64,000 nt of DNA from Candidatus Fermentibacterota bacterium (GTDB lineage Bacteria; Fermentibacterota; Fermentibacteria; Fermentibacterales; JCC-6): the NCBI GenBank assembly GCA_030609965.1, contig JAUWSQ010000002.1:65395-129394 (forward strand), in the 5' to 3' direction. Position 1 is the first letter of the stretch, and each line of letters begins with the position of its first letter. The notes beneath the pieces were generated by a model that saw nothing but the letters and a program-made list of their open reading frames with translations, was not told the DNA's origin and ran no database searches. A program made the translations under genes and the position numbers. Positions 12,745 through 20,081 of the stretch are shown here, piece by piece.

Positions 12745-14508
12745 TTAATAGTCAGGCCTGGATACGAGTTTGAACAGAATATAGCTATCATCAGTTAAAA
12801 CTGGATAAAGATTGAAAGAGACAAAATTTCTCCATTGCTCAAGTTCATTTGCGGACAATTCCGGAGTAATATTTATTGAGGTAATAAACATATCCATGGC
12901 CAGATGAGTTATTCCGCTTTCCCGCAGTGAGTTCGCAATATCTTCGGAATCCATTCCAGACCACAGCATCTCCATCAGTTCAAACGGTACTACTCTATGA
13001 TCGAAAACAGCATATCCGGGAAAATAGAATGGACGGCTCATATTAACCATAAGTGTAGTATCACTTTCAGTTATGTAACGATCACATTTCTGAAAGAAAT
13101 GATAATAAAGCACATTTTCATCAAGGTATGTTACATCATTCTTATATCTCCATGGTTTTTCATACTCGTAAAGATTTATAATTTTTACTGCTGACCAGAT
13201 CATGCAAATTGTAATCAGGACAATCGCAGTATCTCGTAGAAATTTGTTTTTAGTAATCAGAAGATTCTCGAATGATTCGGCAACGGGAATTGATAGCATT
13301 ACAAGGCCTGGAAGCAGGTATCGAACCCTGACAGCTGCTCCATTAGCGATCAGTGTGATAATCATGTAAAGAAACGGCAGCAGTAATTTCTTCCGTCTAT
13401 CCTTTACAACTGCAAAAGCAAGAATCGTACCCGCCAGCAGTAATGGTCCGCTAGCTCCATCAAACAGAGCAGGATTGTTCCATTCGCCATGAAGCGATAT
13501 TCGGACAGGAAGCAGAAGGTAATCCAGAATTCCGTGAAGAGAGGTACTGAAAGTATTCAAGGCATAATACTCTGCCGCTCTGCTGGTCACAGTAATATTC
13601 GGGTTGAAAATGCCCTGCAAGAGTGGGTATACCTGATTTCCCCATTGCAGAATATTTGGAATTGCCCACCATGCTGAAATAAAGAATGCGGAGAATATAG
13701 AATAAAGAATTGTTTTCCTGGTCATATTTCTGAAGTAAAACGGGAGAAGTATGCAGACAATTGCCAGCACAATGAATCCGTTGTACTTACAACAGCTTGC
13801 ACCTCCAGCCCATATTACAGCAAGGAGGGGATTGCCATCTTTTCTGATAAATTCAACATATGCGAGCAATGAAAAGAAAATAAGAAAAGAATCAGAATAG
13901 CTCCATGTCGCATTCCGAACAAGTTCGGGGATACTCATAAGTACTATCAGAGAAAGAACCGCTGTTTTCCTCCTTCCTTTCCGCAGAAAGTAACCTGTAA
14001 GCACGGAACAGGCAGAAAGAAATCCAAGTAGACTGACGACTCTAGAAACTCTGAATCCGAATGTTCCTCCTGCAATCGAATAGAACGATTCAACCAGATA
14101 TGGATAGCTGAAGATTCCGGACCACTCCGGTCTGACAATCCTTCCTGCTTCAAGCCAGATCCTGGCCTGATACAGATGATGAATCATGGCGTCTCTGGAA
14201 AAGGGTGGGAGAAGAACAAGAGGGAAAAGTATCAACCCACAGAGCGCTATCATTACGCCGCCTCCAGGCATACTGAAGCGTCCTGGTCGAACCCATAGAA
14301 TTGTTCCGATTGCAAGGATTGCCCATAGCAGGGCAGATACCATAAGCCCTGACCATCCGGCAGCAGATACAAGGAAAAACATCAGCAGACTTCCTGCGCC
14401 GAATTTTCGAGACCACGATTCCGAGTGAGGAAGCACCAGAACTCCATACCCGCTGATGGATATAGCCGCTACCGAGAAGAAGATTGAAGTAGTGATGAAC
14501 GTGATCAT
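12745..14508 (-). CDS. Polytopic membrane protein, GT-C / ArnT-PMT-like (predicted)
   Basis: 587 aa with more than 12 helices. First-loop acidic/aromatic segment PFSRDAMIHHLYQARIW...SYPYLVE. C-terminal soluble domain. 4-nt overlap with the upstream flippase-like gene. Confidence 0.5.
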   Translation of the reverse strand: MITFITTSIFFSVAAISISGYGVLVLPHSESWSRKFGAGSLLMFFLVSAAGWSGLMVSALLWAILAIGTILWVRPGRFSMPGGGVMIALCGLILFPLVLLPPFSRDAMIHHLYQARIWLEAGRIVRPEWSGIFSYPYLVESFYSIAGGTFGFRVSRVVSLLGFLSACSVLTGYFLRKGRRKTAVLSLIVLMSIPELVRNATWSYSDSFLIFFSLLAYVEFIRKDGNPLLAVIWAGGASCCKYNGFIVLAIVCILLPFYFRNMTRKTILYSIFSAFFISAWWAIPNILQWGNQVYPLLQGIFNPNITVTSRAAEYYALNTFSTSLHGILDYLLLPVRISLHGEWNNPALFDGASGPLLLAGTILAFAVVKDRRKKLLLPFLYMIITLIANGAAVRVRYLLPGLVMLSIPVAESFENLLITKNKFLRDTAIVLITICMIWSAVKIINLYEYEKPWRYKNDVTYLDENVLYYHFFQKCDRYITESDTTLMVNMSRPFYFPGYAVFDHRVVPFELMEMLWSGMDSEDIANSLRESGITHLAMDMFITSINITPELSANELEQWRNFVSFNLYPVLTDDSYILFKLVSRPDY

Positions 14509-15425
14509 TTCAATCTCTTGTTTGAGAAGATTTTTTCGGTGATAACAGAAACAGCCACAAGAAAAAGCTCAACTGCTGTGGTAATAAGTCGTATGGCGAT
14601 TACACCCACAATTACAGTTGGCATTGGAATAAATGCTGGCAGGATAAGAAACAGCACACCTTCGCGGATACCTATGCCACTGGGGGCAAAAAATGCTGCA
14701 AGACCGATTAATCCCGCGATGCTGTAGATACCTGTAATGCTTAAGTAATATTTGAAACTTACCGGTGAAAGGGAGTTGAAAATAAGAAAGAGCGCGAAAC
14801 CCGATAGAAGAAAAGCAACAATATATGCTCCAATAAAAAGTAGAATATTTCTGAATGTTGGGACTTCAAGTAATGGATCTCTCTTAATTAACCGTAGTCC
14901 CCGATTTGTCAGTTTTCTTAAAAATGGTGGATATAGAGCAAACAGCATCAATGCAGCGCCAACACCGGCTATCCACCGTACATATTCTGGAATACTCGCG
15001 GGAGAAAAGGAAAGTGAAATCAGCAACACCAGACAGGAAGCGGTAATGGCTACAATGTATTCAATTATTGTAGCAACTGCCACTTTGCTTTTTGAAAAAC
15101 CGCGGTATGCATCCATTCTTACAAGTAAGAGTGCGATTTTTCCGGGAACGTACTTTCCAAGATACGAAAGAAACCATCCCCTTGCGGCTTTGATCATCGG
15201 GACGTGCAAACCCAGAGTAATCGTAAGCCGGTGCCAGATAAGAAAACAGAAAATATAGTTTATTACAATGAGCGCAGAACCTGCAATAAAATATCCATAT
15301 TTTAATTCAAAATCATATCTGGATATTTCAGAAATATTCTTCCACACAACCGCGATAACCGCCATTATTACGATTGAAAGAAGAAGTCTACTGTACCATT
15401 TTGTTTTTATATTAACTTTATGCAT
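14505..15425 (-). CDS. UPF0104 / LPG_synthase_TM (MprF flippase-domain-like) membrane protein
   Basis: 306 aa, about 8 TM helices. The motif YLGKYVPGKIALLLVRMDAY is characteristic of this family. Confidence 0.65.
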   Translation of the reverse strand: MHKVNIKTKWYSRLLLSIVIMAVIAVVWKNISEISRYDFELKYGYFIAGSALIVINYIFCFLIWHRLTITLGLHVPMIKAARGWFLSYLGKYVPGKIALLLVRMDAYRGFSKSKVAVATIIEYIVAITASCLVLLISLSFSPASIPEYVRWIAGVGAALMLFALYPPFLRKLTNRGLRLIKRDPLLEVPTFRNILLFIGAYIVAFLLSGFALFLIFNSLSPVSFKYYLSITGIYSIAGLIGLAAFFAPSGIGIREGVLFLILPAFIPMPTVIVGVIAIRLITTAVELFLVAVSVITEKIFSNKRLK

Positions 15426-15485
15426 TCTATGACACTAATATATCTAAGTTAATCATTTGAAACGATATTTCATGATTACTGAAAT

Positions 15486-18957: not shown

Positions 18958-19127
18958 CTCATCTGTCCTTAATCATTAATGCGAATAAATATTTATCTGT
19001 TTCAGTACAGCCAGTACAGAGTTACTCTCAATACTCCAGAGAACATAGTTTCAAATCCGGAATCATCATTCCTTTCATCCTGGTTAATTAATATTGCTTG
19101 CAGCCAGATCTCTTATAAGTCAAGAAG

Positions 19128-20081
19128 TTACTTTCCCCTCAAATCCCTGTTAGCTTCCATATCGAACAGCATCGCAAAGAGTATCGACTGCATTCCTATG
19201 AAGGTGCAGAAAAGTATAGCAAGGGCATTAATTTTCGGAATATTTGCAGTCATTTCCCAATAATAGAACAGGCGTATGATTAGTGGTATATCGATAAGAA
19301 AGAGGAATCCTCCGAAAGCGTAGAAAAATATCAGAGGGTGAAAATCACGGATGATATATTTCTGTACCATGCGACGGAAAAATAGCCTTATCAGCAACAT
19401 AGGTAAAGTAAAAAGGACTCTGGATATTCTGATACCGCTCTTCTCGCCAATATCGTAAACTGGATTAATGGGTACATCCGTCACACGCATACCGTAGATA
19501 TTGCATGTTACAAGAAAATCGTTGGGCATGCCGTACCTGGGATAAATATTTTCAAGTGGCAGCAAATGAAGCGCTTTATGATTCAGAGCGGTGTATCCGG
19601 TTTGTGAATCGGTGACATGCCAGTAGCCCGATGCGATTTTCGTCAGGAACGTTAGTACGGAGTTACCAAGGTAGCGAAGGTGGGGAATTTTCTTCCAGGC
19701 TTCTCCTGTAATAAGCCGATTGCCCTTGGTATAATCGGAACGGTCTTCCACCACAGGATCAAGCAGTCCCGGCATATCATCCGGGTCCATCTGTCCATCA
19801 CCAGCCATTACTACGGCTATATCGATGTCATTCTCCCTGCACCAGATGTAACCGGTTCCTATTGCCTTGCCGACGCCTCCGTTCTTCTGGTGCTGAATCA
19901 GGAGAACGCGGTCATCCTCTTTTTCAAGATGCTCGACGATTTCCACAGTGCGGTCTTTGCTCATGTCATCGACGACGATTATTCTATCGATAAAATCCGG
20001 CATCGTGCGAACTGTGCGTTCGATCTGTGTTTCCTCATTGTATGCAGGTACAACGATACCTATTCTCTTATTCCTGTACAT
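19128..20081 (-). CDS. GT2 polyprenyl-phosphate glycosyltransferase (GtrB/ArnC/Dpm1-like) with C-terminal TM helices
   Basis: IGIVVPAYNEE, VVDDMSKDRT, MAGDGQMDP (DxD region), two C-terminal hydrophobic helices. Confidence 0.8.
   Translation of the reverse strand: MYRNKRIGIVVPAYNEETQIERTVRTMPDFIDRIIVVDDMSKDRTVEIVEHLEKEDDRVLLIQHQKNGGVGKAIGTGYIWCRENDIDIAVVMAGDGQMDPDDMPGLLDPVVEDRSDYTKGNRLITGEAWKKIPHLRYLGNSVLTFLTKIASGYWHVTDSQTGYTALNHKALHLLPLENIYPRYGMPNDFLVTCNIYGMRVTDVPINPVYDIGEKSGIRISRVLFTLPMLLIRLFFRRMVQKYIIRDFHPLIFFYAFGGFLFLIDIPLIIRLFYYWEMTANIPKINALAILFCTFIGMQSILFAMLFDMEANRDLRGK

Follow-up and report, generated by a model that had tools for sequence, protein, structure and literature searches.

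A UPF0104 candidate flippase in a predicted amino-pentose glycan operon at a type IV pilin locus of Candidatus Fermentibacterota

The window analysed here, a stretch of 64,000 nucleotides (C38:65395-129394) from a Candidatus Aegiribacteria-like metagenome-assembled genome (MAG; 2.62 Mb, 80.7% complete) of Fermentibacterota, holds an operon of eight minus-strand genes (21607 to 12745) in which a stand-alone UPF0104 protein is encoded together with a family 2 glycosyltransferase (GT2), WbpB- and WbpD-like enzymes, a short-chain dehydrogenase/reductase (SDR), an aminotransferase and two further glycosyltransferases of the GT-B and GT-C folds. On balance, and by no great measure, we consider it probable that this module builds an amino-pentose glycan on a lipid carrier, which would be flipped by UPF0104 and transferred outside the membrane by an enzyme with the fold of ArnT; the order of the steps and the pilins as acceptor are held with lower confidence than the module as a whole.

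ArnA, ArnB, ArnC, ArnD, ArnT, ArnE and ArnF build undecaprenyl-P-L-Ara4N (Ara4N, 4-amino-4-deoxy-arabinose; P, phosphate) and transfer it to lipid A, and UPF0104 is the flippase part of MprF. To our knowledge, only GtrA and ArnE/F proteins have been shown to flip polyprenyl-monophosphate-linked sugars. A role of UPF0104 as putative flippase of a GT2/GT-C glycosylation route, which had been proposed in a preliminary description of the locus, is supported by its coupling to the GT2 gene in sister operons and related loci and by a genome without GtrA.

Operon structure and the gene company of UPF0104

Read in the direction of transcription, the operon comprises the following genes.

20657..21607, minus strand: WbpB-type Gfo/Idh/MocA UDP-2-acetamido-2-deoxy-glucuronate 3-dehydrogenase (PF01408, PF02894), first gene of the operon
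20068..20655, minus strand: WbpD/WlbB-like hexapeptide N-acetyltransferase (PF00132, 74 bits)
19128..20081, minus strand: GT2 polyprenyl-phosphate glycosyltransferase of the DPM1/AglJ/PpgS/ArnC type (PF00535, 81.6 bits)
18004..18957, minus strand: SDR, predicted UDP-(2,3-di)acetamido-hexuronate C4-oxidase/C6-decarboxylase (PF01370, 175.7 bits)
16926..18011, minus strand: DegT-family aminotransferase, predicted sugar 4-aminotransferase (PF01041, 390 bits; 8-nt overlap with the SDR gene)
15486..16832, minus strand: GT4-like GT-B glycosyltransferase, predicted amino-pentose transferase (AlphaFold2 and Foldseek; open reading frame extends to GTG 16892)
14505..15425, minus strand: stand-alone UPF0104/LPG_synthase_TM protein of the MprF flippase-domain family, predicted flippase (PF03706)
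12745..14508, minus strand: GT-C fold glycosyltransferase of the DUF8201 family (AlphaFold2 and Foldseek; ATGA overlap with the UPF0104 gene)

The last six of these genes had been presented in the preliminary description as an Arn-like module, and its account of the six minus-strand open reading frames (ORFs), of their motifs and of the 4-nt overlap (ATGA) between the UPF0104 and GT-C genes agrees with coordinates, translations and the sequence read directly. Its boundaries (12745-20081) were too narrow, as the WbpB and WbpD genes of the same transcription unit had been left out; the WbpD-like gene starts 1 nt past WbpB and overlaps the start of the GT2 gene by 14 nt. Pfam matches were obtained for four of the six genes (GT2, SDR, DegT aminotransferase and UPF0104). 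Every non-overlapping ORF of 80 amino acids (aa) or more in 12745-21607 is assigned, with no ArnE or ArnF subunit among them; a whole-genome search for the ArnE/F family was not made. Promoter and terminator scans returned sites no commoner than chance.

The company that these genes keep was followed in 79 loci fetched around GT-B homologs and annotated with the window proteins, 75 of which have sequence downstream of the GT-B gene, and in 70 genomes of the phylum scanned for GT-C, GT2, GT-B and UPF0104. In nearly all of the 79 loci, genes for an SDR, an aminotransferase and an acetyltransferase stand before the GT-B gene. Directly after it, on the same strand, Wzx is found in 40/75 loci of many phyla, and UPF0104 follows it in 10 loci, on the same strand in Fermentibacterota and convergently in the Smithella/Syntrophales group. 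GT2 orthologs (at least 40% identity) accompany all 12 of the UPF0104-type loci versus 5/40 Wzx-type loci. Within the phylum, the GT-C family occurs in 36/70 genomes (12/14 genera), GT2 orthologs in 16/70 and GT-B in 7/70, all of one genus; UPF0104 orthologs of at least 65% identity are found in exactly the same seven genomes, always adjoining GT-B. Three sister genomes without the GT-B cassette (G014, G018 and G034) carry a contiguous one-strand WbpB-WbpD-GT2-UPF0104 operon with UPF0104 orthologs, 45-48% identical, directly after GT2, so that GT2-UPF0104 appears as the core pair, between the members of which the SDR-aminotransferase-(acetyltransferase)-GT-B cassette lies in the window type. 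In L008, L014 and L015 the island consists of two convergent operons, WbpB-WbpD-GT2-GT-C and SDR-aminotransferase-...-GT-B-UPF0104, and other DPM1-like GT2 genes stand divergent to homologs of the 587-aa GT-C protein in the more distant genomes G069 and G005.

The UPF0104 protein matches PF03706 with 44.5 bits (cut-off 33.4) over residues 15-285 of 306 and has about eight transmembrane (TM) segments; a sequence search of PDB gave no match. GtrA is absent from the genome in its 80.7% complete state, and equally LPG_synthase_C (PF09924), the aminoacyl-phosphatidylglycerol (PG) synthase domain, gave no match there, with matches in 7/14 control genomes. The usual flippase of such routes and a reading of the protein as MprF are removed by these two absences; the preliminary description had asked after a UPF0104 protein partnered with an aminoacyl-PG synthase, and the genome lacks such a domain.

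The GT2 protein carries two C-terminal TM helices or hydrophobic segments. Among NCBIfam models it scores best with AglJ (71 bits), followed by PpgS (53) and ArnC (26), and its nearest solved relatives are dolichol-phosphate mannose synthase (DPMS, 5mlz, 42 bits) and then ArnC (about 25 bits), in keeping with the earlier description as ArnC/GtrB-like. By its domain, TM layout and nearest relatives it is predicted to be a polyprenyl-phosphate-type transferase.

The 587-aa GT-C protein has no Pfam or NCBIfam match, PMT and PMT_2 included. An AlphaFold2 (AF2) model built from a homolog alignment (pLDDT, the predicted local distance difference test, 90.4) has the GT-C fold that had been suspected, with a C-terminal alpha/beta domain at residues 480-587. 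Foldseek ranks ArnT first (5ezm/5f15; E 6e-7, TM-score 0.51/0.55, identity 12%), followed by ALG12, AglB, STT3, ALG9, DPY19, PglB and Pmt4, all with probability 1.0, and 34 homologs share R105, D106, H110 and H111 of the first loop without exception. Relatives of the DUF8201 family outside Fermentibacterota are only PMT/PMT_2 proteins of cable bacteria (Candidatus Electrothrix, Electronema) with about 25% identity.

The ORF of the GT-B protein (15486-16892) codes for 468 aa, or 448 aa from ATG 16832, which is the likely start because Met21 is the first residue of homologs and of the called protein. It equally has no Pfam or NCBIfam match; its AF2 model from a homolog alignment (pLDDT 88.9, predicted TM-score 0.89) bears out the GT-B call, since the top 50 Foldseek matches are all GT-B, with the GT4 enzymes GlgM, PglA, BshA and MshA at probability 1.0. 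The protein carries a conserved hydrophobic helix at about residues 76-103, and its family counts at least 425 homologs, a few of which carry PF13524. This unannotated family is the probable transferase of the amino-pentose. The preliminary description had read the module as a polyprenyl-P-aminosugar pathway; this is not supported, as the SDR-aminotransferase pair travels with GT-B, not with GT2, across the 79 loci, which makes the amino-pentose more likely the donor of GT-B than a monosaccharide linked to undecaprenyl phosphate (Und-P).

Some related arrangements were seen alongside. A Chitinophagales MAG (L050:4054-9016) has a GT-B gene directly followed by a UPF0104 gene (PF03706, 57 bits) without BLAST similarity to that of the window; convergent to this UPF0104 gene run WbpD, a WbpB-like gene and a GT2 gene 58% identical to the window's, and no pilin gene was seen in this locus. 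A 320-aa, seven-TM ORF after GT-B in L054 was considered as UPF0104 and rejected, as it does not belong to the family. An analogous island is found in a Smithella MAG (L028:12481-14556 and neighbours) and in further Desulfobacterota (L006, L022, L033, L051), with the order two-TM GT2, WbpB::WbpD fusion, HisH/HisF-like amidotransferase pair, GT-B, convergent UPF0104 and a 691-aa protein with nine TM segments and TPR, followed by three pilins, PilR, PilC and PilB. The genome of the window itself has four UPF0104 paralogs. At C16:9797-18170 on the minus strand lies a possible second triad, in which a DPM1-like GT2 whose C terminus has two TM helices is accompanied by a GT4, an SDR, a UPF0104 protein of 336 aa and a polytopic protein of 778 aa that has no Pfam match; it ends in a 700-aa UPF0104::radical-SAM/SPASM fusion reminiscent of the hopanoid proteins HpnL and HpnJ.

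The predicted sugar and its N-acyl group

The two genes at the head of the operon point to the Wbp branch of nucleotide-sugar synthesis: the WbpB protein matches PDB entry 3oa2 (WbpB) with 326.9 bits (E 1e-96), and the WbpD-like protein matches the NeuD/PglB/VioB family (85.7 bits) and is 63% identical to the product of the gene in WbpD position of a Herpetosiphonaceae locus (L004). The SDR finds 8vr2 as best PDB match (442.9 bits, about 65% identity), followed by UDP-xylose synthase (UXS1, 118 bits) and ArnA (69-72 bits), and contains ARWTYAVSK and STSEVFG, in which it has TSE and YxxxK in common with the decarboxylating UXS/ArnA group. An assignment as dTDP-glucose 4,6-dehydratase, the top NCBIfam match (163 bits, cut-off 365), was rejected, as TSE instead of TDE and the PDB ranking contradict it. 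The SDR is thus predicted to work like the C-terminal domain of ArnA or like UXS without being an ArnA ortholog. Its family holds at least 8000 proteins at E <= 1e-60, which bear generic 'epimerase/dehydratase' names only, and among the matches listed its homologs are unusually conserved (74-80% identity) across phyla such as Nitrospirota and Desulfobacterota.

The aminotransferase (AT361) matches 8vr3/8vr5 (274 bits) before ArnB (192) and WbpE (183). In a tree of 73 enzymes from related loci it groups with those encoded directly after genes like the 317-aa SDR (SH-aLRT, the Shimodaira-Hasegawa-like approximate likelihood ratio test, 96-98) and well apart from the clade adjoining WbpB/WbpD, so that it was excluded as WbpE. 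Neither the SDR, by its S-E/Y-K motif, nor the aminotransferase, by its place in the tree, falls into the dTDP-sugar 4,6-dehydratase and 3-aminotransferase clades that the preliminary description had named as a contrary outcome. The clade of the WbpE position holds the two other DegT enzymes of the genome (C21:5489-6661 and C49:13034-14212), whose nearest solved relatives are the 3-aminotransferases QdtB, DesV and WbpE, and a TviB/WbpA-like dehydrogenase is encoded on another contig (C70:10824-12137); WbpE and WbpA genes are absent from the island, with candidates on C21, C49 and C70.

We take 8VR2, 8VR3 and 8VR5, from 2024 work of the Holden laboratory, to be the C4-oxidase/decarboxylase and 4-aminotransferase of Psychrobacter cryohalolentis, and the product of their pathway to be presumably 2,3,4-triacetamido-2,3,4-trideoxy-L-arabinose. 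The sugar of such a UDP-2,3,4-triacetamido-2,3,4-trideoxy-L-arabinose branch has been documented in the O-antigen of P. cryohalolentis K5 (PMC8040287). Among the listed homologs of the window's SDR, which exceed 74% identity, the Psychrobacter protein does not occur. Full six-enzyme sets of 3-dehydrogenase, 3-aminotransferase, 3-N-acetyltransferase, SDR, 4-aminotransferase and 4-N-acetyltransferase are present in L019, L032 and L072, and because these loci hold exactly the enzymes that such a pathway needs, an Arn-like chemistry on an acetamido-uronate from the Wbp branch is suggested. From the match of the SDR to 8vr2 and the place of the aminotransferase in the clade of SDR partners, we think it probable that the sugar is not Ara4N itself but an analogue with 2(,3)-acetamido groups. 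A Methanosarcina locus has the SDR paired with a UDP-N-acetylmannosamine dehydrogenase instead of WbpB/WbpD.

Of the Arn-like character proposed for the module, the likeness in chemistry and fold stands, and the orthology of SDR, aminotransferase and GT2 does not: scores with ArnA (NF005998, 77.1 bits against a cut-off of 777), ArnB (NF008658, 250/631) and ArnC (NF007986, 26.3/529) are far below cut-off or, in PDB, fall behind other relatives, so that none of these three is an Arn ortholog. The lack of a formyltransferase and deformylase, also reported before, was upheld, as no formyltransferase or deacetylase is encoded in the island and candidates for ArnD and the N-terminal part of ArnA elsewhere in the genome were rejected, being Fmt, PurN and one XrtA-type exopolysaccharide (EPS) fusion on C21. 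This 937-aa fusion (C21:54704-57517, minus strand) joins a GT4, a formyltransferase (ArnA-N/Fmt-like, about 79 bits) and an XrtA-system deacetylase (TIGR03006, 247 bits) and sits in a separate EPS-type locus.

Downstream of the operon follows a group of genes with a possible bearing on the 4-amine.

8892..12428, minus strand: tailoring set of SDR (301 aa), metallophosphoesterase, ATP-grasp ligase and methyltransferase (Pfam matches)

In most sister loci a 177-aa hexapeptide acetyltransferase gene follows the aminotransferase gene (as at L007:9378-9911); it is present in L007, L008 and L010-L013 and absent from the window and L015, which carry the ATP-grasp tailoring set instead, and the same exchange is seen between L086 and L072 (Cyclobacteriaceae). 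The acetyltransferase occurs in 0/6 ATP-grasp loci versus 37/73 others (Fisher p = 0.027). The ATP-grasp set is also found in Smithellaceae, Scalinduaceae and other loci. The absent acetyltransferase together with the ATP-grasp set suggests that the 4-amine bears another N-acyl group in the window than in the sister loci, and we read the missing formyl cycle as explicable by N-acetylation in the sister loci and another N-acylation in the window.

The pilin locus, the proposed route and competing explanations

The island is bounded by two type IV pilin paralogs, with pilC-pilS-pilR upstream and obg and dprA beyond the second pilin.

5567..5974, plus strand: type IV pilin paralog 1 (MKKGFTLIELM..., from the ORF listing), bordering the opposite end of the island from paralog 2; candidate acceptor
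21913..22284, plus strand: type IV pilin paralog 2 (translation MNRRAFTLIELM...), divergent from the operon; candidate acceptor

The second pilin is 53% identical to the first. The minus-strand block has a GC content of 38-42% versus 46-50% in the flanks. Insertion between pilSR-pilin and obg-dprA is common to L007, L008 and L010-L015; pilins lie within 10 kb of 7/12 UPF0104-type loci versus 1/40 Wzx-type loci, and the Smithella islands adjoin pilins, PilR, PilC and PilB. A GT-C protein beside a pilin gene, TfpW, glycosylates pilin in the periplasm from a polyprenyl-P-pentose (10.1101/2020.04.19.049825) and is a precedent; the pilins are the likeliest candidate acceptors of the glycan.

The identities and order of the genes, the folds and the patterns of co-occurrence were observed; from them we propose a route of six steps, in which every catalytic step, the order of the second and fourth, the flipping by UPF0104 and the acceptor are inferred. 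WbpB and WbpD would first make UDP-2,3-diacetamido-2,3-dideoxy-glucuronate, for which a WbpA-like dehydrogenase and a 3-aminotransferase would come from other parts of the genome. Secondly, the DPM1/ArnC-type GT2 would attach a sugar of the Wbp branch to polyprenyl phosphate on the cytoplasmic side of the membrane. Thirdly, the SDR would oxidise C4 of the uronate and remove C6, as the ArnA C-terminal domain and UXS do, and the aminotransferase would make a 4-amino-pentose, an acetamido analogue of L-Ara4N, which the ATP-grasp set probably N-acylates here. The GT-B enzyme would add, fourthly, the amino-pentose to the lipid-linked sugar, UPF0104 would flip the polyprenyl-monophosphate-linked glycan and, finally, the ArnT-fold GT-C would transfer it to a periplasmic acceptor, the pilins most likely.

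Several points weigh against this reading. The catalytic roles and the flipping of polyprenyl-linked glycans by UPF0104 are deduced from genes, the function assigned to 8vr2/8vr3 is presumed, and the co-occurrence counts come from just three independent lineages. The WbpA candidate lies on another contig of a MAG that is 80.7% complete, and with only one aminotransferase in the island the WbpE step would have to be provided in trans, or the WbpB/WbpD branch makes another product. Of the loci that contain a close homolog of the SDR, about half are without WbpB/WbpD within 10 kb, which renders the 3-acetamido group uncertain. L030 and L061 have GT2 beside the SDR instead of WbpB, so that the pentose could be a substrate of GT2 itself. 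With LpxC present, lipid A is made by this organism, and lipopolysaccharide (LPS) is therefore a possible acceptor.

Among the competing explanations, it is unlikely that the GT-B enzyme glycosylates a phospholipid or diacylglycerol and UPF0104 flips the resulting aminoglycolipid, as in GpgSDF- or HexSDF-like systems, with GT2 and GT-C belonging to a separate adjacent pathway. The gene set documented for glucosaminyl-PG (GlcN-PG) in Pseudomonas aeruginosa combines a GT4 with UPF0104 (PMC12713373), fusions of the UPF0104 domain, as PplT, with GT-B exist (10.1101/2022.03.11.483950), and the identical phyletic patterns of GT-B and high-identity UPF0104 as well as the conserved hydrophobic helix in GT-B fit this explanation. 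On the other hand, Wzx after the same GT-B family in 40 loci, which are ordinary polysaccharide clusters, argues for a polyprenyl-linked acceptor; where GT-B is absent, UPF0104 is encoded directly after GT2, and in the window it is translationally coupled to GT-C.

A true Arn-type pathway, in which GT2 puts the 4-amino-pentose on undecaprenyl phosphate, UPF0104 replaces ArnE/F and GT-C modifies lipid A or the LPS core with a change in surface charge, is quite unlikely. The ArnT fold of GT-C, ArnC among the nearest solved relatives of GT2, the ArnA-C/ArnB-type chemistry of SDR and aminotransferase, the GT2 gene directly before the SDR gene in L030 and L061 and the presence of LpxC speak for it, and a free amine is conceivable in a window without the 177-aa N-acetyltransferase. 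However, all Arn models score far under their cut-offs, the SDR-aminotransferase pair tracks GT-B across the 79 loci, and in G014, G018 and G034 GT2 and UPF0104 occur with WbpB/WbpD and without SDR and aminotransferase. Moreover, the N-acetyltransferases of sister loci and the ATP-grasp tailoring set here suggest that the amine is probably capped, and the position of the island is always a pilin locus.

An ordinary O-antigen- or EPS-like island that came to lie beside the pilins by chance, with UPF0104 as general phospholipid translocase unrelated to the glycan, would agree with the low GC content, which resembles that of horizontally acquired polysaccharide genes, with the mostly Wzx-type clusters of the homologous cassettes and with the four UPF0104 paralogs of the genome, but is very unlikely in view of an island in which domain scans of the window proteins found no Wzy, Wzx, initiating phosphoglycosyltransferase or chain-length regulator, of a pilin-locus position conserved across Fermentibacterota with a parallel island in Smithella, and of a UPF0104 gene that tightly adjoins GT2, GT-B and GT-C.

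Further polytopic proteins are encoded around the operon. Two paralogs, 31% identical, lie by the pilin genes (6040-7917, minus strand; 23997-25841, plus strand), and two others have weak matches, one to LA_3751/LA_3752 (22289-23857) and one TMEM260-like (4062-5402). When the profile of the GT-C family was compared with two of these polytopic proteins, of 625 aa and 522 aa, neither match reached significance (probability 5% and 0.6%).

Relation to known systems and implications

The Arn pathway and the window share an SDR with the S-E/Y-K motif, which oxidises a UDP-uronate at C4 and removes its C6 (by prediction in the window), together with a DegT enzyme for the 4-transamination that comes next, and equally a polyprenyl-P GT2, a flippase (here a predicted one) and an ArnT-fold GT-C in one operon. 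The window differs by its WbpB/WbpD start, the extra GT-B and the lack of ArnE/F and of a formyltransferase/deformylase cycle; the sugar loaded by GT2 is here probably not the amino sugar, and the likely acceptors are pilins instead of lipid A. In the three-component systems GtrA/GtrB/GtrV, CsbB/GtcA/YfhO and PpgS/Rv3632/Rv3779, GT2 likewise makes a polyprenyl-P-sugar that a small flippase moves and a GT-C transfers outside, whereas the candidate flippase of the window is an eight-TM UPF0104 and not a four-TM GtrA, and a cytoplasmic GT-B probably extends the sugar before flipping.

The P. cryohalolentis K5 pathway, whose enzymes are those presumed above, resembles the window by WbpB and WbpD upstream, with the last N-acetyltransferase held by sister loci. 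The window is without terminal acetyltransferase, WbpE and WbpA in cis, with the ATP-grasp/phosphoesterase/SDR/methyltransferase set instead, and its sugar would enter a lipid-carrier/GT-C route and not a Wzx/Wzy O-antigen.

Archaeal AglD is a GT2::UPF0104 fusion in which UPF0104 forms the C-terminal domain (PMC5898192), and archaeal UPF0104 proteins encoded near an AglD-like GT2 and a PMT/STT3-like protein (the MJ_1079/MJ_1080 neighbourhood) have been proposed as glycosylation flippases (Makarova, Galperin and Koonin 2015; PMC5898192), so that the idea of UPF0104 as a flippase is not new in kind. The triad of AglD/AglJ-like GT2, UPF0104 and PMT/STT3-like GT-C is the same in the window, which is, unlike the archaeal loci, bacterial, with separate genes, a pathway for a rare amino-pentose and a type IV pilin locus, and with a GT-C family (DUF8201) nearly confined to Fermentibacterota. 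Fusions of the UPF0104 'PplT' domain with GT-A and with GT-B have been described by the Peschel group (10.1101/2022.03.11.483950), and in GpgSDF (P. aeruginosa GlcN-PG) and HexSDF (Clostridioides difficile) a GT4 is paired with UPF0104 (PMC12713373). Like the window, the latter systems have a GT4-type GT-B adjoining a putative UPF0104 flippase and an amino-sugar product, but they modify the head groups of phospholipids or glycolipids, need a deacetylase and have no GT2 or GT-C. TfpW of P. aeruginosa group IV pilins shares with the window the GT-C by a pilin gene, the polyprenyl-P-pentose donor and the periplasmic glycosylation of pilin, predicted for the window; it differs by D-arabinofuranose, another pathway, the lack of UPF0104, GT-B and Wbp proteins and the proposal of TfpW itself as donor translocator. 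New in comparison are a form of the system that is bacterial and linked to pilins, a sugar branch resembling that of Ara4N, the exchange of Wzx and UPF0104 behind a conserved GT-B family without annotation and the minimal WbpB-WbpD-GT2-UPF0104 operon.

A wider proposal, that UPF0104 proteins are dedicated flippases of polyprenyl-monophosphate-linked glycans in bacteria without GtrA, that in a natural swap a mobile cassette of SDR, aminotransferase and GT-B, which in other phyla has Wzx at its end and serves units linked to undecaprenyl diphosphate (Und-PP), has been inserted minus its Wzx between GT2 and UPF0104 and that an ArnT-fold enzyme puts an Und-P-linked disaccharide on type IV pilins, is tentative and for the present rather doubtful. 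Stand-alone UPF0104 proteins are very widespread, and the locus with its relatives makes the flippase hypothesis directly testable, with compact gene sets at hand in the minimal WbpB-WbpD-GT2-UPF0104 unit, the unit with the GT-B cassette and the Wzx-ending cassette of other phyla. If the wider proposal is true, pilins would carry an O-glycan that contains a 2,3-diacetamido-4-acylamino-pentose, and bacteria would have a new route of protein glycosylation, similar to the archaeal one based on dolichol phosphate. The locus also suggests that in an uncultured phylum pilins are glycosylated with a rare pentose like Ara4N.

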